A stretch of DNA of 21,622 nt, from assembly GCA_039801885.1 (NCBI GenBank), contig JBDRVN010000027.1, forward strand, positions 1 through 21,622. The letters are read 5' to 3'. A model generated the notes under the pieces. The model made no database searches, was not told where the DNA came from, and saw only the letters and a program-made list of their open reading frames with translations. Both the position numbers and the translations under genes were made by a program. Position 1 is the first letter of the stretch, and each line of letters starts with the position of its first letter. Positions 2,716 through 13,936 of the stretch are shown piece after piece. The DNA is from a candidate division WOR-3 bacterium (GTDB lineage: Bacteria; Hydrothermota; Tepidihabitantia; Tepidihabitantales; DTDR01).

Positions 2716-4836
2716 ATGATTTTACTATTTCTATTTCTTTTAACCAAGGATTTTTTAGAAGTTTATAAAGTTGATAAAATTTTTATTGATGGGATAGAAG
2801 AGGATTTGTGGCGGTTGGCAGATTCGGTAATTGTTAATAAGCAATTTTATCCTTATTATGATTCTCTTGCCAGTTATAAAACTATTGTAAAGGTTTTGCA
2901 GGATAAAAATAATTTATATTTTCTTATTAAAACTGATTTTAAAAATGACAAACCAAATACTTCTTTGAGTAGCGAAGTCGATTTTTATCGTATTTATCTC
3001 GATCCAACTCTTTCCAGATTGAATGCTTATTCTTTCTATATTAATACAGTTAATAAGAGATATAATTTTCTTTTACTTGATGATGGAAGAAACAGAGAGG
3101 TTTGGGAAGGGGTATTTGATAGCAAGACGAAAATTTACAGAGATAATGATGCTAACTATATTTTAATTTGCGAAATTAAAATTCCTTTTAAGAATTTCCG
3201 TTATAGAAAAGATATAAATGAATGGGGTTTTCAAATAGAAACATATTATCAGAAAAAGCGAGAGACTTGTTATTTTCTTTTGCCCGAGCAAGAAGAAGGG
3301 TTAAGGGTATCAAAATTTGGTACTTTAAAAAATGTTTTACCCCATTCGGAAGGAATTGGTATGGAAATTTATCCGGTTGGAGTTTTAAAGAACGAATATT
3401 ATATTGGTCGGGATGAGAAAAGATTAGGGAAAATTTTACCTTGGAGCGGCTTAGATATTGCTTATAAAAAAGAAGATAAACAGATAAATTTAACTTTCTT
3501 GCCCGATTTTGCCGAAATTGAATCTGACCCATTTACAATGACTTTAAGTAAATACGAAATTTATTATCCGGAAAGAAGACATTTCTTTATAGAAGGTAAA
3601 AATTATTTTGAACCAGCAACAATGGGTGTAGGTCTTTATTCACCGATTAAGATTTTTTATTCAAGAAGGATTGGTAGGAAAATGTGTGATTATTCGGGCG
3701 AAGTGCCAATTTTAAGTGGTCTAAAATTTACTGGTCGGTTTGAGAGGTATGAGATTGGTTTTCTAAATTCTTTTACCGGTGAGAAGTTTGGTGAATGGGA
3801 TACCTCTTTTTATAATACTTGGAATGTATTTCGGATAAAAAGATATTTTTTTACCAACTCAGAGATTGGTTTTCTTGCTACTCATAAATATGATATAGAA
3901 AGAAAAGAAAGTTTCTTTAACTTTGATAATGATGGTGCTTTAAGATTTGGGAAAAATCAGTTTTTATGGCAGATAGTTGGCAATAAAAATAGAAACGAAA
4001 AATTTGGCTATGCTTTTCAAAATGGCGGAATTTATTATTTAACAAAAAATATTTCTACTTTTTATAGTATTAAATATGTAAATAATGATTTTGATATTAG
4101 TTCAATGGGTTATGCTTCGGTCTTTCCCGGTAATAGAAATGTTTATTTAGGAGCAAGTTACCAAGGATTCCCTAAAAGCAAAAAAGTTAATCAATATGTT
4201 TTTACTTCTTCCTTTTGGCAAGGCAAAGAAAGAGAAGATATTGATTGGTCAAGGACTGGTGGAATAGAGTTTAATGTTAATTTTACAAAACCGGAAATTT
4301 TTTATTACAATTATTTTGCTTATGGAAGATGTTTTAAAGGAGATATTAAATATAACTATATTGGAATAAATAATAATCTATCTTTTTCAATTGGGCAGAC
4401 AAGTTTTTGGTTGGGAACTTGGTTGGGAAGGTCCTATAATTATTCAAGGAATTTTGTTGCCTGGCAGGCATTATCTTGGTTTGGTTTTTATTTACCGATT
4501 TTAAATAGATTTTATTTAGACCTCAATATTAATGGTTGGTCACAGTTTGATACTTTAAATAGACATTTATTAACTACTTTAAGCCCTATCTTTTCTCTTG
4601 GCTATAAATTTACTCCTTATATGGGAATAACCTTTTATTCTAACCCTCCTTTAAGTTATCAAAGTTCTCAATTTACTCTCTTCCAATTAAGAACCGCCTT
4701 ATATTATTATTGGGAGATAAAGCCAAAATCAAAGATTTATTTTGTGATAAATGAACTTCTTATAAAAAATAATAATAAATGGCAAGAGAATGAGCGGATA
4801 TTAGCGATAAAAATAAAATATTTCTACTGGTTTTAA
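2716..4836 (+). CDS. DUF5916-family outer-membrane protein with N-terminal CBM9/DOMON-like domain
   Basis: Signature 'PDFAEIESD...YYPERRHFFIEG...IFYSRRIG'; N-terminal 'IDG.....W' and 'QDKNNLYF'; aromatic beta-barrel-type C-terminus (KIKYFYWF). Confidence 0.8.
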   Translation: MILLFLFLLTKDFLEVYKVDKIFIDGIEEDLWRLADSVIVNKQFYPYYDSLASYKTIVKVLQDKNNLYFLIKTDFKNDKPNTSLSSEVDFYRIYLDPTLSRLNAYSFYINTVNKRYNFLLLDDGRNREVWEGVFDSKTKIYRDNDANYILICEIKIPFKNFRYRKDINEWGFQIETYYQKKRETCYFLLPEQEEGLRVSKFGTLKNVLPHSEGIGMEIYPVGVLKNEYYIGRDEKRLGKILPWSGLDIAYKKEDKQINLTFLPDFAEIESDPFTMTLSKYEIYYPERRHFFIEGKNYFEPATMGVGLYSPIKIFYSRRIGRKMCDYSGEVPILSGLKFTGRFERYEIGFLNSFTGEKFGEWDTSFYNTWNVFRIKRYFFTNSEIGFLATHKYDIERKESFFNFDNDGALRFGKNQFLWQIVGNKNRNEKFGYAFQNGGIYYLTKNISTFYSIKYVNNDFDISSMGYASVFPGNRNVYLGASYQGFPKSKKVNQYVFTSSFWQGKEREDIDWSRTGGIEFNVNFTKPEIFYYNYFAYGRCFKGDIKYNYIGINNNLSFSIGQTSFWLGTWLGRSYNYSRNFVAWQALSWFGFYLPILNRFYLDLNINGWSQFDTLNRHLLTTLSPIFSLGYKFTPYMGITFYSNPPLSYQSSQFTLFQLRTALYYYWEIKPKSKIYFVINELLIKNNNKWQENERILAIKIKYFYWF

Positions 4837-4865
4837 TTGACTTTTAAACAATTTTATGTTAAAAT
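4837..4865 (+). promoter_or_regulatory. sigma70-like promoter of clpC, leaderless arrangement
   Basis: TTGACT 4837-4842, 17-bp spacer ending TGn, TAAAAT 4860-4865, 5 nt to ATG 4871, no SD. Confidence 0.7.
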
Positions 4866-4870
4866 AAATT

Positions 4871-7303
4871 ATGCAGGATAGATTTACCAATCGTTTAAGA
4901 AAAGTTATTAACATTGCCCGTCAGGAGGCAATTAGAATGCATCATGATTATATTGGTTCCGAACATTTACTTTTAGGAATTGTAAAGGAAGGCGAGGGGG
5001 TTGCGGCGTTAGTTTTATCCAATTTGGGAATTGAAAGAGACGAATTGATTTCGGCAATTGAAAATGCCATAAGTTATGGCAAAACTCCAATTATTTTAGG
5101 TGAAATTCCTTTAAATCAGGAGGCAAGGAGGATTTTAAATTATGCGATGGAAGAGGCGAGGAGGATGAACCATTCTTATATCGGTACTGAACATCTTTTA
5201 TTAGGAATATTAAGAGAAGACCAATCAGTTGCGGCCCAAGTTTTGTTCTCCTTAGGAATTGATATTGATATTGTTCGCAGCGAAATAATGAAGGTTTTAG
5301 AAGGCGAAACAGTTAGTCAATCTATTCCAAAAGGTAAATCTAAAACACCCGCTTTAGATTATTTCTCAAGGGATTTAACCCAATTGGCAAGAGAAGATAA
5401 ACTTGACCCAATTATTGGTCGAGAAAAAGAGATTGAGAGGGTTATCCAAATATTGGTTAGAAGAAAGAAAAATAATCCCGTTTTAATTGGTGAAGCCGGT
5501 GTTGGTAAAACCGCAATTGTTGAAGGACTTGCCCAAAGGATTGTTGAGGGAAGAGTTCCTTCTCTATTAAAAAATAAAAGGGTTTTGGCATTAGATTTAC
5601 CAGCCTTAATTGCCGGTACAAAATACCGAGGTCAGTTTGAAGAGAGAATGAAGACAGTGCTTAATGAGATAACGAAATCGGGCGATGTTATCATTTTTAT
5701 TGATGAATTACACACAATTGTTGGTGCCGGTGCTGCGGAAGGAGCGATCGATGCCTCTAATATTTTAAAACCGGCATTAGCAAGAGGAGAAATTCAATGT
5801 ATTGGTGCCACTACTTTTGAAGAATATCGAAAGTATATTGAAAAACATTCAGCATTAGAAAGAAGATTTCAGCCAATTATTGTTGAACCGCCATCCGTTT
5901 CTGAAACGATAAAAATTTTACAAGGTTTAAAAGAGAAATACGAATTACATCATGGGGTAATTTATACTGATGAAGCCTTAGAGGCTTGTGCTTATCTTGC
6001 TGACCGGTATATTACTGATCGCTATTTACCCGACAAAGCGATAGATGTGATGGATGAAGCCGGTGCTCGGGTAAAATTGTTAAGACCAGTTTTCAATCCT
6101 GATATTGAAGAATTGGAGAGAAGGATTGAAAGGGTAAAAAAATTAAAAGAAGAAGCAGTAAGAAAACAGGAGTTCGAAAAGGCAGCAGAAATCAGAGATG
6201 AACAGAGGAGGTTAACAGAATTTTTGAAGAGAAAGAGAAAGGAAATTGAAAAGAAAGGTGGTTTTCCGACGGTTATTCCCGAAGATATTGCTCAAGTTGT
6301 TTCAATGTGGTCGGGAATTCCTTTACAAAAGATTGAAGAGAGTGAACAACAGAAGCTTTTGAAAATGGAAGAGGAATTAAAGAAAAGGATTGTTGGTCAG
6401 GACCACGCAATTGAAGTAGTTGCCCAGGCAACGAGAAGAAGTCGGGCAGGAATTAAAGATCCAAGAAGACCAATCGGTTCTTTTATATTTTTGGGTCCTA
6501 CTGGCGTTGGTAAAACTGAATTGGCAAGGGTATTGGCAAGGTTTCTCTTTGGGCACGAAGATGCCTTAATAAGGCTTGATATGTCTGAATATATGGAAAA
6601 ATTTAATGTCTCAAGATTAATTGGTGCACCACCTGGTTATGTGGGTTATGAAGAAGGTGGCCAATTAACTGAGAAAGTGAGGAGAAAACCTTATTCAGTG
6701 GTTTTGTTTGACGAAATTGAAAAAGCCCATCCGGATGTTTTTAATATTTTATTACAAATTTTAGAAGATGGTCAATTAACCGATGCCTTTGGCCGGAGGA
6801 TCAATTTTAGAAATTGTGTGATTATAATGACATCAAATATTGGTACTGCGGAAATAAAGAAATCAAGCGGTTTTGGTTTTGCTTCAGTTAGTCCAGAAGA
6901 AAGTTATGAGAAGATGAAAGAAAGGATTTTAATGGAAGTGAAAAAAGTCTTCCGACCGGAATTTATTAATCGGGTAGATGAGATTATTGTCTTTAGGTCC
7001 TTAGGAAAAGAGGAAATGGAAAAGATTGTTGATATTCAGATTAATGATATAAATGAGAGATTAAAAGAGAAAGGTTTAAAATTGGTTTTATCTCCGGAAG
7101 CAAAAGAGGTTCTTGTTGAACAGGGCTTTGATCCGGAATACGGTGCCCGACCATTAAAGAGAGCAATAAGAAGATTGATTGAAGACCCCTTAGCCGAAGA
7201 GATATTAAAAGGAAAATTTAAAGAAAGTTCTATTGTCTATATTGAAAGGGAAGGAAACGAATTACGTTTTGTTGCCAAAAAACCAGAAGAACTAAAAGTT
7301 TAA
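4871..7303 (+). CDS. clpC: ATP-dependent Clp protease ATP-binding subunit ClpC
   Basis: Two Clp-N repeats (EHLLLG), Walker A motifs GEAGVGKT and [11 protein letters not shown]-like middle domain ([11 protein letters not shown]), GYVGY pore loop, ClpP-docking 'FGF' loop, 810 aa. Confidence 0.95.
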
Positions 7304-7312
7304 ATAAAATAG

Positions 7313-9520
7313 GTGCTTAAAAAGTCTTTATTTTTATCTTTCCTTATTTTCTCTTTTCTTTTTTCACAAATAATCTATCAGGTTCGAGCAAAAACTGAGT
7401 TTGTGGATACTTTAACTCTTCTTAATCTGTGCGGAATAAAGCCGGGAGAAATTCTCTCTTCAGAAAGGGTTGCCGAGGCAATTAAAAAAATTTACAAAAG
7501 CGGTCTTTTCAGCGATATAAAAGCCGAAACCACAATTACTGATAAAGGGATAATTTTAATTTTTACTACTAAAGATAATCCATTATTAAAAGATATCATT
7601 TTTTCGGGTAATCAAAAAGTTAAAACTAAAGAGTTAAAAGAAAAAATTAAATATAAAAAAGGAGAGGTGATTAGTGAATATAAGATATTTAATTATCAAA
7701 AAGAGATTCTTAATCTTTATAAAGAAAAAGGCTTTGTGGCACCAAAGGTTTTTTATACTAAATCAGAAAGAGATTCCCAAAATATGGTAACAATCACCTT
7801 TCATATTGAAGAAGGTAAGAAATATAAAATAAGAAAGATAAATCTGATCGGTGTTAAAAATTTAAAAGAAAATAAGATAAAAAGAAAATTAGTTAATCGG
7901 GAAAAGAGATGGTATCGGAAAGGGATTTTTAAAGAAGAGGAGTTTAAAAAGGATTTGACAAGGATAACCGATTATTACAAAGAGAATGGATTTTTACAAG
8001 CAAAGATAGTTGACTACGAATTAAAAAGCGAAGGTGATTGGTTAGAAATTAATATTCAATTAGAAGAAGGGAAGAGATTTTATTTAGGAGATATTAATTT
8101 TAGCGGTAATAATTCTATCGGCATAGAAAGTTTAAGGAAAGCAATAAAATTGAAAAAAGGTAATTATTATAATGTCAAAAAGATGAATTTAAGTTTGCAG
8201 GAATTGTATAATCTTTATCAAGAAGAGGGTTTTCTATATTGTCAGATTAATCCGATTGAAGAGATTAGAAATGATACCGTTGATGTGAATTATGAGATAA
8301 AAGAAGGAAATCCGGTTAAAATCAGATTGGTTAATATTGAAGGTAATGAACGGACAAAAGATAAGGTTATCAGAAGAGAGATAGTTACTTTACCAGGAGA
8401 TTTGTTTAAGAAATCTTTATTAATAAGAAGTCAAAGAAATATTTTTAATTTGGGATTTTTTGAGGATATCAGTGTTGATTTCACACCGGTAGATAGCGAA
8501 TATATTGATTTAAATTATAAAGTGAAAGAGAAAGTAACTTTTGGACAAGTAAGTGCCAGTGTCTCTTATTCTCAAAAAGAAAAGATTGTCGGTGGTTTTG
8601 AAATTTCTCAACCAAATCTTTTTGGCAAAGGTCAAAAGATATATTTAAAATTAGAAAAAGGTAGAACAGTTACTAATTTACAAATGGGTTTTGAAGAACC
8701 TTATCTTTTTAATATCCCTTTTTCTTTTGGTTTTAATTTATTATACTATTCCTATGCTTATGATTATTATGATAAACTTGACCGAAATCTTTCTTTTAAC
8801 TTCTCCTATCCAATAATTCTTGATTATACAAGAATCTACTGGGGAGTAAAATTGGGTAGTAGTTACATTCCGCCAAAAAGTATTAAGGATACCAAAGTGC
8901 CAAAAGAAGTGTATCGGGATACGATAAAAAAGATATATCTTTCACCAAATTTTTCTATTATCCGGGATGCTCGGGATTATATTTTTAATCCCAGTGCTGG
9001 TTCTTATTATTTATATTCTTTGGATATCTCAACTTTAAAGATTAACTTTTTAAGACAAATAATCGATGTTCGGGTTTATTTCCCATTATTTTGGAAATTT
9101 TCTTTGATGGCAAGAACAAGGATTGGTTATATTACTGAGTTGAAAAAGAACGATACAGTGCCGTTATATGAACGATTTTATTTGGGCGGCATTGGTGAAG
9201 AAGGTATTCGTGGTTATCCCGACCGTTCAATTTCGCCAGCAAAAGATGGTTATTTGGTTGGTGGCAAGGCAATGACAATTTTTAATTTAGAATATAAACT
9301 AAAATTGGCTTATTATCTTTCTTTTATCGCCTTCTTTGATTGTGGAAACTGTTTTGAAGATTTAAATAAGATAAATTTTGGAACCTTTAAAAGGGGAGTT
9401 GGTGTTGGTGTCCGAGTAGAAGTGCCGATGTTAGGATTGATTGGTTTTGATTTAGGATACGGATTTGACCGAGAAGGAAATAAATTAGAACCCCATTTCC
9501 AATTTGGCAAAACCTTTTAA
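7313..9520 (+). CDS. bamA: Outer membrane protein assembly factor BamA
   Basis: GTG start and signal peptide; POTRA repeats (GN..TKDKVIRRE), PNLFGKGQ, ERFYLGG...IRGY, C-terminal Phe (FQFGKTF). Confidence 0.93.
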   Translation: MLKKSLFLSFLIFSFLFSQIIYQVRAKTEFVDTLTLLNLCGIKPGEILSSERVAEAIKKIYKSGLFSDIKAETTITDKGIILIFTTKDNPLLKDIIFSGNQKVKTKELKEKIKYKKGEVISEYKIFNYQKEILNLYKEKGFVAPKVFYTKSERDSQNMVTITFHIEEGKKYKIRKINLIGVKNLKENKIKRKLVNREKRWYRKGIFKEEEFKKDLTRITDYYKENGFLQAKIVDYELKSEGDWLEINIQLEEGKRFYLGDINFSGNNSIGIESLRKAIKLKKGNYYNVKKMNLSLQELYNLYQEEGFLYCQINPIEEIRNDTVDVNYEIKEGNPVKIRLVNIEGNERTKDKVIRREIVTLPGDLFKKSLLIRSQRNIFNLGFFEDISVDFTPVDSEYIDLNYKVKEKVTFGQVSASVSYSQKEKIVGGFEISQPNLFGKGQKIYLKLEKGRTVTNLQMGFEEPYLFNIPFSFGFNLLYYSYAYDYYDKLDRNLSFNFSYPIILDYTRIYWGVKLGSSYIPPKSIKDTKVPKEVYRDTIKKIYLSPNFSIIRDARDYIFNPSAGSYYLYSLDISTLKINFLRQIIDVRVYFPLFWKFSLMARTRIGYITELKKNDTVPLYERFYLGGIGEEGIRGYPDRSISPAKDGYLVGGKAMTIFNLEYKLKLAYYLSFIAFFDCGNCFEDLNKINFGTFKRGVGVGVRVEVPMLGLIGFDLGYGFDREGNKLEPHFQFGKTF

Positions 9521-9542: not shown

Positions 9543-10073
9543 TTACCAAATAAAAGTAATCTTTTTTATTTCATAATAGTCACCGGTTTGAAATTTTAAA
9601 AAATAGATGCCGGGATTAACCTTTCGCTGAAAGTTATTTTCGCCTTGCCAGTTGATTGAGTAGATACCAGGTTTTTTATTTTCATTAATCAATATCTTTA
9701 TAATCCTTCCCATTCGGTCATAAATAAAAAGTTTTACATTACTTTGATTTTTAAGGGAGAAAAGAATTCTTGTTTTATGAAAGAAAGGATTAGGAAAGGG
9801 GTTATATAATTTTGTTTCTAACTGATAGGGATTTGGTAATTCTTCCTTTTCTTTAATATTTACCTGTGGTTCTCTTATCCAGAAACCAATAAAACCAAGA
9901 TAATTAGGGCTTGTTAGATAGCCGATAGCATTTTGCGAAAGAGAATTTTTTGCTTGATAATTGGTATTAGTTAAATTTTTTCCACCGCTGTTTATTGTAT
10001 ACCAATCACAATAATATTGAGAAAAAGCATAAGAAATAAAAAGAAGAAAAAGAAAGATTTTTAGTTTACTCAT
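9543..10073 (-). CDS. Small secreted protein with C-terminal FlgD-Ig / T9SS-like domain
   Basis: Signal peptide; short 'WYTINSGG...SLSQ...GFW' module; 'PFPNPF...IYDRMGR...PGIYSINWQG...VNPGIYF'. Overlaps the upstream gene by 8 nt. Confidence 0.8.
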   Translation of the reverse strand: MSKLKIFLFLLFISYAFSQYYCDWYTINSGGKNLTNTNYQAKNSLSQNAIGYLTSPNYLGFIGFWIREPQVNIKEKEELPNPYQLETKLYNPFPNPFFHKTRILFSLKNQSNVKLFIYDRMGRIIKILINENKKPGIYSINWQGENNFQRKVNPGIYFLKFQTGDYYEIKKITFIW

Positions 10074-12093
10074 TCTTCCTCCCTTTTTCCTTTAACAATT
10101 TTTCCCATTCTTCTTTTGCCTTTCGGGATGTTTCGTATTCTTTTAATATACCAAAGGCAATCCAATCAAAAGAGATATTAGTATTATCTCCCCAGTTAGG
10201 AATTTTCTTTAAGGTTATTTCAAAACCATTTGTTTTAATTCTGCTTATATAAAGTAAACCAGTAGGCTCTTCTTTCGGAGTAACAATAATTCTAACCGGA
10301 ATGTCGGTTCTAATATTTTGGGAAAAGATTTCTGGAAAAGAGATTTCGGCTTTGCCATTATTGAGTCTTCCACTACCAGCAGTAATTATCGATAAATCGG
10401 GACTGATAATACAAGGTGCTTCTTTGTCATCCAAAAGGCCACCAGTATACCAACCACCAGTCGCATAACCACGACCATAGGCTTGGATAGCAGTATCGGT
10501 TGCCACATTGCCATAGGCATGAGCATAAATTCCTTCGGCTCCGCTATTACCGGCAGAAAAATCACCACCCGCTTGGTCTCCGCTCGCTTGCATACCATAA
10601 TTACCAGCATTATAAACAGTTACACCATAAAGACCAGCCTGGCTAATATGTACACCATAATTCGTAGCATTGTTAATATAGATACCATAAAAAGAAGGAT
10701 TGGAAATATTCAGACCATAACTGGCTCGGTTTATTGTTATACCATTAGAGACGGTATCAATATAAATACCGTTATAGGCACTATCAATATAAATGCCATA
10801 AGAAGATGCCCGATCTACTGATAAACCAACACTTGTTCTTAGAATACCAACACCTAATGGTGCATAACGTATATCAATGCCGGTGCTGGCACTATCAATT
10901 TGCATACCTTTATAGGCACTGTCAATAAAGACGCCGCTTCCTGAACAACGATATACCCGCAAACCGTAATTTCTTGCTCGGGAAATATTTACAGCATAAT
11001 TAGCATTACTGACGATAACTCCATTCTCAGTAGTGCCGGTGTAAACACCATAAAGAGCGCTATCAACCGATAAACCATAGTTACCTGCTCGGTAAACCCT
11101 TAAGCCTGTTTGGGCGCGATTTATATTAAAACCATAAGTAGCAGCACTATCAATATTGATACCAGTATAAGTTGCTCGACCGATAGTAAGGCCGGTGCTC
11201 GCCGATTTCACCCAAACACCGGCACCAGCTGGTGTGGTATCAATTGCTAAACCAGCACCATTACCCGTGTTTTTGATATGGATTATTGCATTAGGATAAC
11301 TAACATTTCCACTAAGAGTGCAAGGTTTAAAAATATCAACTCCTCTTATTGAATTATCAGTAATCTTTTGGGAATTGACAACTTCGTTAGCAATTAATGG
11401 ATTGGGATAATTACCGGTTAAATCGCCACCGGCTGGACCGGTTGGCGGTAAGCCAGTAATAGCAACATTAGTGGCATTTGTTATCTGTCCTTTTTCATTA
11501 ACGGTGATTTGGGCAACATTTGTTGCATCACCATAAGTGCCAGCAGTAACACCGGTAGCAGCTAAATCATCGGCAACAATTGTGCCGTCTTGAATTTCAT
11601 CGGTATTTATTGGTGGACTAATTGGTCTTTGGATTTGGGCATTTAAGGCATAATTGGCGCTATCGGCTTTTCTTGATAGATAAGAGTAGGCATTACTAAC
11701 AATTCTTATTCTTGGTGTCATTGGTGAATGAGGGTTTACTTGCATTTCTAAATAACAATTGCCATCAATCGGAAGAGAAGAAATTGGCGCGACACTTCCT
11801 AAAAGGACATTAAAAAGCCCAGATTGGGTTTGAACATTTTGGGTTTCGTTCCAAAAGGCAGTGCCACCAGTAGGAGAAGTAAATAAGCGAAAAGTTATTG
11901 AATAAATAGAATCTAAAACTGGTTGACCATTAATATCAGTAAGTTTTCCTTGAAAATTAAGCATCAAGGGAATAGTAATTTGGTCGGTATTAGGAGAGAT
12001 AGGTTTTAAGGAATTTAAAGAACTGAGTGTCGGAGGATTAGCAAAAACAATAAAAAAGAGGATTAATAAAAAAATTAAAGAATTTTTAAACAT
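10066..12093 (-). CDS. Secreted fibre/adhesin-like protein with predicted right-handed beta-helix
   Basis: SD AAGGAGGT and signal peptide; 'LNFQGKLTD..GQP....YSITFRLF...TGGTAFWNETQ...GLFNVLLG' domain; tail-fibre-like 'GVTAGTYG...ITVNEKGQIT'; 'AGGDLTGNYPNP'; many 10-11-aa G-x-x-I-x-x-A repeats; charged C-terminal helix. Confidence 0.75.
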   Translation of the reverse strand: MFKNSLIFLLILFFIVFANPPTLSSLNSLKPISPNTDQITIPLMLNFQGKLTDINGQPVLDSIYSITFRLFTSPTGGTAFWNETQNVQTQSGLFNVLLGSVAPISSLPIDGNCYLEMQVNPHSPMTPRIRIVSNAYSYLSRKADSANYALNAQIQRPISPPINTDEIQDGTIVADDLAATGVTAGTYGDATNVAQITVNEKGQITNATNVAITGLPPTGPAGGDLTGNYPNPLIANEVVNSQKITDNSIRGVDIFKPCTLSGNVSYPNAIIHIKNTGNGAGLAIDTTPAGAGVWVKSASTGLTIGRATYTGINIDSAATYGFNINRAQTGLRVYRAGNYGLSVDSALYGVYTGTTENGVIVSNANYAVNISRARNYGLRVYRCSGSGVFIDSAYKGMQIDSASTGIDIRYAPLGVGILRTSVGLSVDRASSYGIYIDSAYNGIYIDTVSNGITINRASYGLNISNPSFYGIYINNATNYGVHISQAGLYGVTVYNAGNYGMQASGDQAGGDFSAGNSGAEGIYAHAYGNVATDTAIQAYGRGYATGGWYTGGLLDDKEAPCIISPDLSIITAGSGRLNNGKAEISFPEIFSQNIRTDIPVRIIVTPKEEPTGLLYISRIKTNGFEITLKKIPNWGDNTNISFDWIAFGILKEYETSRKAKEEWEKLLKEKGRKNE

Positions 12094-12168
12094 TTTTTAC
12101 CTCCTTGATACCTTGCGCACCAAAAGGTATCTTTTCCTCGTCTCAGGCTCAGTGCTGCCTATAAAACT
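12094..12168 (-). promoter_or_regulatory. Structured 5' leader (two hairpins plus SD), candidate cis-regulatory RNA
   Basis: P1 AGGC/GCCU (12157-12160 with 12145-12148); perfect 8-bp P2 GAUACCUU/AAGGUAUC (12124-12131 with 12107-12114) abutting SD at 12099-12106. Confidence 0.55.
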
Positions 12169-12174
12169 TTTTAA

Positions 12175-12203
12175 AATTTAAACTAAAAATATTTTTATGT
12201 CAA
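12175..12203 (-). promoter_or_regulatory. sigma70-like promoter TTGACA-N17-TAAATT
   Basis: TTGACA at 12203-12198, 17-bp spacer, TAAATT at 12180-12175. Predicts a leader of about 75 nt. Confidence 0.7.
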
Positions 12204-12372
12204 TAAAAAAGATATTGAATTAGATAAAAAATTATTATAAATTATAAAAAACAAATGAGATTTTATGTAGATTTCTATTAAAAATTACTTCTAAGGCAGT
12301 CTCTAAGGCGATATAATAAATAGCCCCTATCTGAAGCCTGAAAAAGAAAGATAATTTTTGTCAATATAAAAT

Positions 12373-12996
12373 TTAAGTTAATTTAATCCGCCATTTTGTA
12401 CGGATTATTGGCAGGCAGTTGTTATAATATTTTCTTAAAAATTCTATTGTTTTTTTATCACTGGGATAGCCGGAGCCAAAATCACCATATTGTTTTCTTA
12501 AATTTTTTATAATCCTATCTCTTTCTACTTTAGCAATTATTGAAGCAGCACTTACTACTTCATATTTTTTATCTGCCTTATTTTCGCCAATAATTTTTGG
12601 TGTGATATTCTTCTTATTTAATAAATTTTTTAATTCTTCACAATACTTTTTAATTCCCCTTTGATTTACGGGACAATCAAAATAGATAATATCGGGATTT
12701 AATTTCTCAATAATTTTTGCCATATTTTTCAGTTCCAAAAGATTTAAGTTATATTTATCAATAATTTTTGGTGATATTTTCTTTATAACTATTCTTTTGG
12801 CAATATCTTTTATTTTCTTTGCTAATTTTTCTCTTTTATCGGGTTTAAGTTGTTTAGAATCCTTTACACCAATCTCTTTTAATTTTATTATATCTTTTTC
12901 TTCCATTAATATTCCACAAATTATCATTGGACCAATAACACATCCTCTACCGGCTTCGTCAATTCCTAAGATATAATTTTCTTTATTCAACTTCAA
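12373..12996 (-). CDS. rnhB: Ribonuclease HII (archaeal-type motifs)
   Basis: GIDEAGRG.VIGPM, GVKDSK.L, KAD...VSAASIIAKV.RD, YGDFGSGYPSD. Confidence 0.93.
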   Translation of the reverse strand: MKLNKENYILGIDEAGRGCVIGPMIICGILMEEKDIIKLKEIGVKDSKQLKPDKREKLAKKIKDIAKRIVIKKISPKIIDKYNLNLLELKNMAKIIEKLNPDIIYFDCPVNQRGIKKYCEELKNLLNKKNITPKIIGENKADKKYEVVSAASIIAKVERDRIIKNLRKQYGDFGSGYPSDKKTIEFLRKYYNNCLPIIRTKWRIKLT

Positions 12997-13936
12997 AAGT
13001 TCTGAGAATTACATCTAATTGGAGTAAGTTATTTAACTTCTTTTCACCAGGATAAAACAAGGTGCCATCAATCAAATAGAATTTATCCTGATAGTTAAAG
13101 GCATAAGAGATAAAAGGACCGCCAATTATATCTTTATCATTCTGCCAGACACCAATAAGTTTTAGAGCAATTTGGTTTAAAAAATAGGTGCTTTCAGCAT
13201 AAGTATATTCCCTTAAAATATAATCGCCATTATAAAATTTTATCGTTAAACTATCTCTTAAATTGGCAATCTTTTCGGGCAATAATTCCCTTCTTGTGTT
13301 ATCAAAATAGATAAATATTGACCTATCAGGATAATGGGTAAAGAGATAGATAAAATTATCTTTTTTATATTCTTCTTTTAAAATATATCTCTTGGGAACT
13401 TTAAAAGTAAAATGGTAATTTTCTTTTAAATAATTTATTTTTTCTTTATCAATACCAATAGAATAAGTATAAAGATGGATAAGGTCATAAATATGTTCTA
13501 AAAGAGAATAAAAAATTCTTTTCTCGTATCTTTTTAAGCCTTCTTTTAATAGATTTTTCTCACTACTGACAAAAATAAATATCTGTTGATTTTTGGTATA
13601 TAAGTCTTTTAAACGAAAGAAGCCAAAGGTATCTCTTTTGATAATCTCAATTTTATCACCAACCAAATCCGAAATAAATTCGTCAGATATTGTGCCAACT
13701 AAAAAGAGGGTAGTAAAATCTTTTAATAAGGGAAAACTTGCCAAGTTTTTATATCTAATGGTAAAATAGGGTTCGGGTTGGGGAGTATAAACTTTCTTTT
13801 CTAATATTTGCGAGATTAGATTTTCTATTTCATTTTGATATTCAGTAAAAATAATAACTTCTCTTAATTTACCAATGGTTGGCGGTAGAGGAGAGCAAGA
13901 GAATAAGAAAAGAATAAAAACCAATAATTTTCTCAT
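12983..13936 (-). CDS. DUF4837-family lipoprotein
   Basis: Lipobox LFLFS-C; motifs 'PQPEP', 'G.W......GGPFISY', 'YPG.KK...L.QL'. Confidence 0.7.
   Translation of the reverse strand: MRKLLVFILFLFSCSPLPPTIGKLREVIIFTEYQNEIENLISQILEKKVYTPQPEPYFTIRYKNLASFPLLKDFTTLFLVGTISDEFISDLVGDKIEIIKRDTFGFFRLKDLYTKNQQIFIFVSSEKNLLKEGLKRYEKRIFYSLLEHIYDLIHLYTYSIGIDKEKINYLKENYHFTFKVPKRYILKEEYKKDNFIYLFTHYPDRSIFIYFDNTRRELLPEKIANLRDSLTIKFYNGDYILREYTYAESTYFLNQIALKLIGVWQNDKDIIGGPFISYAFNYQDKFYLIDGTLFYPGEKKLNNLLQLDVILRTFEVE

Follow-up and report, generated by a model that had tools for sequence, protein, structure and literature searches.

Positions 12094-12168 of the 21,622-nucleotide stretch of DNA that we analyzed (the window), which comes from a candidate division WOR-3 bacterium, form on the minus strand the 5' leader of an ORF for a 675-aa signal-peptide protein. 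We propose with moderate confidence that this leader is a copy of a conserved kissing-loop RNA, restricted to its phylum in the genomes searched, that controls in cis the translation of genes for secreted and surface proteins. The sequences of its relatives document the fold and the placement of the RNA and point to a previously uncatalogued, lineage-wide kissing-loop leader, the action of which we infer.

The leader of the 675-aa ORF

The leader lies in an intergenic region of 279 nt that follows the RNase HII gene and precedes the 675-aa ORF. The window copy has two hairpins, P1 and P2, with loops L1 and L2, and the following elements were assigned.

12198-12203, minus strand: -35 hexamer TTGACA (consensus scan; identical at the ortholog locus)
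12175-12180, minus strand: -10 hexamer TAAATT (consensus scan; ortholog comparison)
12157-12160, minus strand: P1 5' arm AGGC (family consensus N-GGC)
12149-12156, minus strand: loop L1 AGCACUGA (family consensus GGCACCGA), of which GCACU at 12151-12155 pairs with L2
12145-12148, minus strand: P1 3' arm GCCU, pairing with AGGC
12132-12144, minus strand: linker J1/2 GAGACGAGGAAAA, with the conserved ACGR as ACGA at 12138-12141 and an A-rich tail
12124-12131, minus strand: P2 5' arm GAUACCUU, pairing with AAGGUAUC
12115-12123, minus strand: loop L2 UUGGUGCGC, of which GGUGC at 12117-12121 pairs with L1
12107-12114, minus strand: P2 3' arm AAGGUAUC, pairing with GAUACCUU
12099-12106, minus strand: SD AAGGAGGU, read from the sequence (the ortholog SD is AAGGGGGU)
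12098-12129, minus strand: alternative hairpin that hides the SD, UACCUUUUGGUGC with GUAUCAA(G)GAGGUA (window copy; not conserved)
10066-12093, minus strand: 675-aa ORF with a hydrophobic, signal-peptide-like N-terminus and no Pfam family
9543-10073, minus strand: 176-aa ORF with an 8-nt overlap with the stop of the 675-aa ORF

The promoter scan gave 10 of 12 consensus matches for TTGACA-17-TAAATT at 12203-12175. This promoter is near-invariant at the sole orthologous locus, and the intergenic DNA farther upstream has diverged. Judged from promoter spacing only, the transcript would start at about 12166-12169. The SD is separated from the ATG (12093-12091) by AAAAA. The preliminary description had placed a GC-rich island between a clear promoter and the ATG. 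Its quoted sequence was exact; the GC-rich island alone proved unselective, as a crude screen of the intergenic DNA counted 253 islands with a G+C of at least 0.46 in 50-nt windows.

Between the RNase HII gene and the leader promoter, a terminator-like hairpin (GGCTTCAGATAGGGGCT, 12322-12338, minus strand) with a T-rich tail directly follows the RNase HII gene. The neighbors at 2716-9520 (plus strand) and 12373-13936 (minus strand) are ordinary genes, encoding a DUF5916/CBM9 protein, a ClpB/ClpC-type AAA+ chaperone, BamA (five POTRA domains and Omp85), RNase HII and a DUF4837 protein.

The 675-aa protein is one of a multi-copy family whose members share a conserved N-terminal domain, and its clusters in the protein atlas are all annotated as "hypothetical". 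The 176-aa ORF is probably co-transcribed with it and carries at its C-terminus a weak type IX-like sorting domain. A weak Por_Secre_tail match (E = 1.4e-05, 25.7 bits, under the cut-off of 27) was found in the 176-aa ORF, and its FlgD_ig and CHU_C matches are likewise weak. The sorting-domain-like segment is carried by the second ORF (9543-10073), which follows the 675-aa ORF (10066-12093) on the minus strand, and the pair may represent one surface-protein gene that has been split or frameshifted, or else a two-gene unit.

Folding of 91 nt gave -21.2 kcal/mol (z = -2.25), a value matched by 4 of 200 shuffles. Among the 237 ORFs of the genome with a GGAGG SD, the leader has the most stable 81-nt upstream fold, ranking first by energy, 9th by z-score and 7th by G+C. 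The loop-loop duplex of the window copy was predicted at -7.6 kcal/mol, a value that 2.5% of 20,000 loop shuffles attained, as did 0.37% of random loops drawn with the composition of the leader. L1 of the window copy is off the consensus (AGCACUGA versus GGCACCGA) by two substitutions, G to A and C to U, and the C to U substitution places one G.U pair in the kiss. An outer helix between GAGAC (12140-12144) and GUUUU (12163-12167) is also possible in the window copy.

Protein-guided scans of genome and metagenome collections found only one close ortholog, in genome G005, the protein of which is 86% identical. A metagenome contig carries nearly the same leader as G005, with two differences. The window leader differs from that of the ortholog by about 15 changes, and the promoter is almost invariant. 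Across the window, G005 and metagenome leaders, all 21 proposed pairs are kept (63 of 63 cells); one P2 pair has changed on both sides, from C-G to U-A, and four changes are one-sided. In the ortholog the outer helix is kept by two G.U to A-U changes, and the kiss is stronger through a U to C change in L1 (-9.7 kcal/mol, reached by 0.05% of shuffles). The SD-closing hairpin is absent from the ortholog prediction. Alone, this pairwise comparison is weak, with P2 kept in 12% and P1 in 20% of random mutants. The paralogs of the 675-aa protein within the same genome have unrelated leaders.

Contigs of four sequencing runs showed only the two known leader variants; two runs gave short spurious pieces only. 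In one run, X2, the type of window positions 12081-12210 and the G005 type were found on separate contigs, so that two related populations coexist.

Distribution and covariation of the motif

A covariance model (R1) was built from the window leader, the G005 ortholog and one metagenome copy. Over 66 genomes of the order, R1 gave matches of 46-52 bits in other families, and their alignments contained a near-identical core, GGCGGCACCGAGCC ... GACGA ... GGUGC, around a P2 of quite different sequence. A second model (R2) was built from 27 sequences after AT-rich false positives had been taken out by eye. When E ≤ 0.01 was required, R2 matched 34 of the 66 genomes, with 81 matches in total, the E-values of such models being rough. 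Sixty matches scored at least 27 bits, in 26 of the 66 genomes, with up to 7 copies in a genome and often in clusters. In a sample of 151 genomes from the phylum, R2 matched 26 at E ≤ 1e-4, of which 14 lie outside the order. The motif-bearing genomes range in G+C from about 30% to over 60% and in size from 1.5 to 4.7 Mb. The source genome has a single copy, that of the window, which has all motif elements and scores 79.1 bits with R2, though it is itself in the R2 seed.

In the one other phylum sampled, none of 101 genomes gave an R2 match above 24.9 bits, and its four weak matches are coding-like and without P2 and L2. Viral contigs with the 14-nt core were also considered as motif copies and were rejected as chance matches. 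Among 80 viral stretches with the exact core, the R2 score was at most 22.8 bits and mostly about 16, and R1 gave no full-length match (0 of 80).

Rfam 15 gave no match at the gathering threshold over the whole window, only unrelated weak matches at E ≤ 10 in positions 12000-12400, and no motif-overlapping match at E ≤ 1 at ten loci with consensus-like copies. The impression recorded at the outset, that the leader is not recognizable as a known class, was therefore borne out as far as the families of Rfam 15 are concerned. The motifs of a 2017 survey of 224 motifs are reportedly in Rfam, and its supplements may list motifs absent from the text. The main text of that survey makes no mention of kissing loops, secreted proteins or signal peptides. 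The full-text literature that was searched held no description of such a motif.

The anatomy of the motif was counted in 82 distinct copies (alignment A6). The counts for P1 and P2 come from an alignment fitted to the model. In all, 87.4% of cells were paired compared with 69.3% in shuffles, and none of 500 shuffles reached the observed value, although these shuffle statistics overstate the significance because the alignment was model-fitted and the genomes are related. When the partners were slid by 1-3 columns, 39-49% of cells were paired.

P1 consists of 4 bp, N-GGC/GCC-N', and its GGC/GCC pairs are kept in 98.8% of cells. The third pair (columns 26 and 92) is CG in 67 copies, UA in 10, UG in 2 and AU in 1, and the fourth covaries freely (CG 26, UA 13, AU 8, GU 6). 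L1 has the consensus GGCACCG(A). The linker carries the conserved ACGR (A 62, C 58, G 71, then A 57 or G 16, of 78 copies), followed by A-rich residues. The median number of perfect pairs in P2 is 7, and its 5' arm occurs in 49 distinct sequences. Covariation in P2 is strong, each pair showing double-sided changes in 18 to 43 cells. Next to the loop, nearly all P2 pairs have a pyrimidine on the 5' side and a purine on the 3' side, as in CG 44, UA 21 and UG 6 versus AU 3 and GC 2. L2 is NN-GGUGC-NN (NNGGUGCNN), and its GGUGC is found in 73-78 of 78 copies.

GCACC of L1 and GGUGC of L2 pair in a kissing-loop pseudoknot of 5-6 bp. The pairing counts of this loop-loop helix were not fitted, because the helix was outside the model. 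Of 80 cells, 75-79 are canonical at each of its four innermost pairs and 79 at the next position (GC 74, AU 2, CG 1, UA 1, GU 1). At a sixth, optional outer pair (column 27 with 137), canonical cells number only 27 of 80 (GC 20, GU 4, UG 3). Taken together, the six pairs have 87.3% of their cells paired. Covariation was seen in P1, in P2 and in the loop-loop helix. The two hairpins with complementary loops of the preliminary description, and the covariation in homologous leaders that it had named as a check, were thus both recovered in the relatives.

The clearest single evidence for the kiss, on sequence grounds, is a tandem array in genome G016 (L086, G016:C4:61746-62683), in which four copies lie within about 1 kb, each before an ORF of 33-40 aa. 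Their L1:L2 sets are GGCACC:GGUGCC, GCCACC:GGUGGC, GACACC:GGUGU and GUCACC:GGUGAC, so that all four Watson-Crick combinations (G-C, C-G, A-U and U-A) occur at one kissing position, as if neighboring units had been made mutually orthogonal. These four matched sets argue for selection for pairing within each unit.

A weak co-variation was seen between the last linker purine and the sixth position of L2 (AG 35, AA 13, GC 13, AC 7), which hints at a tertiary contact. The outer helix (GUUUU/GAGAC) was rejected as a family feature, with 68.6% of its cells paired and a 3' strand conserved as a sequence, RRGAC.

Placement, downstream genes and proposed mode of action

A same-strand ORF was called directly downstream of 73 of the 82 copies. 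The distance from the end of P2 to the start codon has a median of 19 nt (IQR 16-24) and is at most 35 nt in 50 of 52 copies, which leaves enough room for an SD and none for a terminator. In the window copy, the terminator scan found none after P2, where A-rich sequence and the SD stand. This tight placement before start codons without a terminator argues for control of translation initiation, and we propose that the element would act in cis on the initiation of genes for secreted and surface proteins, a secretome-type regulon.

Signal-peptide-like N-termini were found in 43 of 57 downstream ORFs of at least 60 aa compared with 107 of 237 background ORFs, by a crude signal-peptide rule with a high background rate (45%) and with crude ORF starts, especially in GC-rich genomes. 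Pfam scans of 50 downstream proteins found C-terminal sorting domains, several of them type IX-like (FlgD_ig, Por_Secre_tail or CHU_C) in 10 and no Pfam family in 32. Other domains were Kelch, BNR, PQQ-propeller, GH16, C39-like peptidase, CARDB and DUF4962. The N-terminal "NxQGxLTD" domain of the window's protein is common to at least seven downstream proteins. A few downstream ORFs encode small CxxC proteins rich in Cys or very short hydrophobic peptides. In the congeneric genome G001, an SRP RNA of the large bacterial type (L080:583-850, G001:C25; 144 bits) lies about 650 nt from a motif copy that precedes a 52-aa CxxC-rich ORF.

In 14 of 79 copies, P1 is preceded at a distance of 28-65 nt by the end of a sigma-54-type promoter box (GGCAC-N6-TGCA), for example in L263, L244, L266, L252, L082:842, L248, L271 and L279; the controls gave 3 of 79 on the reverse strand and 0.32 in shuffles. 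The promoter of the window copy is of the sigma-70 type, unlike these.

In the window copy, formation of P2 and the kiss would leave the SD free, and without the kiss the 5' arm of P2 would re-pair with AAGGAGGU and close the SD, so that this copy would be ON when folded. The predicted MFE is indeed a register-shifted hairpin of -13.4 kcal/mol, compared with -8.5 kcal/mol for P2, in which CCUUUU pairs with the SD (alternative pairing UACCUUUU). P2 and the kiss (-7.6 kcal/mol) together roughly balance this SD-closing hairpin. The preliminary description had made an anti-SD in the 5' arm of P2 the core of a translational switch. That pairing is the predicted MFE in the window copy, but it is not the general mechanism, because pairing of the SD to the P2 5' arm or loop was predicted in only 7 of 49 evaluable copies. 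It is absent from the ortholog, and the anti-SD switch was rejected as the mechanism of the family. The median probability that the SD is unpaired is 0.66 across the evaluable copies. As modeled, there is no conserved expression platform across the family. What stands of the earlier reading as a cis-regulatory leader is a structured, cis-located RNA; the anti-SD switch at its core does not.

The main rival to cis translational control, which we judge unlikely, is a constitutive leader whose pseudoknot would block 5'-end-dependent decay or enhance the translation of abundant surface proteins without sensing. The ompA and aprE leaders act as constitutive stabilizers, and ompA, aprE and S-layer mRNAs have 5' stabilizer hairpins, encode abundant surface proteins and carry a strong SD. 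The motif resembles them as a structured leader of surface genes with a strong SD and, in the window copy, a helix at the inferred 5' end. This helix lies within about 2 nt of the inferred transcript start in both the window and the ortholog. The mostly open SD predicted across copies, and the hairpins just 5' of the SD in many unrelated leaders of the same protein family, also fit a constitutive role, and tandem copies between short ORFs fit processing and protection of a polycistronic RNA. However, a stabilizer needs structure and not at least 20 invariant nucleotides in loops and linker, and the motif differs from these leaders in its sequence conservation across the phylum, its kissing pseudoknot and its variable promoter distance. 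The sigma-54-like promoters 28-65 nt upstream of P1 would imply a single-stranded 5' tail of at least 16 nt before P1 in 14 of 79 copies, unlike classic stabilizers, and the outer helix that would reach the 5' end is weak across the family (68.6% paired).

An RNA thermometer, in which heat would melt the SD-closing hairpin or the kiss and so change translation, is very unlikely. In fourU and ROSE thermometers a U-rich tract pairs with the SD, and pairing such as that of CCUUUU with AAGGAGG occurs in the fourU type. The MFE fold of the window copy has just this pairing of a U-rich tract with AGGA of the SD. The organism also looks thermophilic: the stretch was found in runs labeled "hot springs metagenome", the tRNA G+C is 60% in a genome of 31% G+C, and the IVYWREL fraction is 0.438, which a formula converts to about 75°C. 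At 65-75°C the folding model gives P1 and P2 marginal stability. Against this, the SD of the window copy is predicted to be open with a probability of just 0.28 even at 65°C, and the SD closure seen in 7 of 49 copies is missing from an ortholog from the same habitat, so that membership in the fourU type was rejected. Unlike the fourU and ROSE thermometers, the family has an invariant-loop pseudoknot as its defining feature, and its SD pairing is not conserved. The thermometer that the preliminary description had listed among its options is unlikely as a general function, because the long invariant loops and linker are atypical of thermometers and the motif-bearing genomes differ widely in G+C and size.

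We regard it as highly improbable that the loops act in trans, with L1 of one mRNA pairing with L2 of another and gathering the mRNAs of secreted proteins. Such intermolecular pairing is chemically possible, since L1 and L2 are near-identical across copies within a genome, but the loops of the tandem array have diversified into four matched sets, and the source genome has a single copy.

That the element is not an RNA and is instead a palindromic DNA operator of a transcription factor or a chance fold is barely conceivable, since P2 is an inverted repeat downstream of a promoter and pair retention against the closest relative is only weakly significant (20% of random mutants for P1 and 12% for P2), but P2 keeps its pairing through 49 arm sequences where binding of a protein to DNA would require half-sites to be conserved, the motif is specific to one strand and lies 5' of ORFs, and the viral and outside-phylum controls are clean.

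Known leader RNAs and the putative effector

The guanidine-II (mini-ykkC) riboswitch, which is in Rfam, has two small hairpins with a variable linker, and the contact of its loops is the active state. Its SD comes just after the second hairpin for translational control, both hairpins carry an ACGR tetraloop, and the kiss consists of 2 bp and the ligand. The motif is alike in its two hairpins, variable linker, kissing loops, SD after the second hairpin and conserved ACGR. It differs in its loops of 7-9 nt, GGCACCG(A) and NNGGUGCNN, in a GCACC:GGUGC helix of 5-6 bp and in the position of ACGR, which is in the linker. In addition, the 50 scanned downstream proteins are without genes for guanidine detoxification or transport (carboxylase, efflux). 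Membership in guanidine-II was rejected, with no ACGR tetraloops, no guanidine genes and no Rfam match.

The guanidine-IV riboswitch (mepA/GGAM-1) has two hairpins, for which ligand-stabilized kissing has been proposed, and is associated with an intrinsic terminator and with sugE or mepA genes (PMC7736828). The motif shares its two-hairpin architecture with kissing loops. Membership would require the second hairpin to be an intrinsic terminator with a U-run after it, and it was rejected since the motif has no terminator after P2, a different gene set and no Rfam match.

Many invariant unpaired nucleotides, fixed helix sequences and a regulon-like gene set argue for a specific partner of the motif, be it a protein or a small molecule, and the compact kissing fold would be the state that this effector recognizes or stabilizes. 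A protein is a possible effector, put forward tentatively, and a small molecule is an equally tentative candidate. Action with no effector at all is slightly less likely.

Among proteins, CsrA/RsmA was rejected as the binder of the leader. CsrA (PF02599) was not found in the source genome, which is 91% complete, with positive controls in E. coli, B. subtilis and T. maritima, and the conserved loops are without GGA.

Among small molecules, cyclic dinucleotides had been suggested at the outset as ligands to try. The regulons of c-di-GMP riboswitches have several copies per genome before genes for surface, adhesion and unknown secreted proteins. The motif resembles them in gene context and in having several copies per genome, but its fold is much smaller and gave no match to the Rfam models c-di-GMP-I or -II. 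The GGDEF domain (PF00990) was not found in the 91% complete source genome by a search that was positive in 8 of 14 control genomes. This weakened the c-di-GMP suggestion, and membership in the c-di-GMP riboswitches was rejected.

The motif may, at the same tentative level, be the aptamer of a new riboswitch class, by which a small signaling molecule or ion would set the translation of the secretome. In that case, a kissing-loop pocket of about 55 nt, formed by GA of L1, ACGR of the linker and the flanks of L2, would bind the ligand. Such a riboswitch would control a secretome that includes type IX-like cargo and other surface proteins throughout an uncultivated phylum with hot-spring thermophiles among its members, and would reveal a signal without a known sensor.

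Structured cis-regulatory RNAs that covary strongly and retain many invariant unpaired positions have repeatedly proved to be sensors, and orphan motifs have led to unknown signals and pathways. The motif is small, pseudoknotted and present in several copies per genome, and its association is with secreted and surface proteins rather than with a metabolic pathway. It could therefore serve as a handle on cell-surface coordination in a poorly known phylum without a cultured model, and its copies form a clear sequence set for ligand or protein fishing. As a compact natural kissing-loop module with natural orthogonal variants, it may also be of use in RNA engineering.

A second recurring leader was observed before very large signal-peptide ORFs of the genus, at the following positions.

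G000 (-): C19:25182-25216, C22:8137-8171, C22:1026-1059 and C41 about 9560-9612
Other genomes: G002:C11:38701-38733, G003:C13:12862-12894, G003:C20:2002-2035 and G004:C5:19962-19997

The DNA pattern for this leader was unspecific in GC-rich genomes. The leader has an AU-rich hairpin with a G-rich loop (AAGGGGUGG), UUCACCC(U) 20-22 nt later and then an SD, an arrangement that suggests an H-type pseudoknot. Two copies have compensatory stem changes (UUAG/CUAA versus CCGG/CUGG), and three copies have an extra 5' hairpin right after the TATAAT box. The second leader and the kissing-loop motif are alike in being built on GGUG:CACC pairing.
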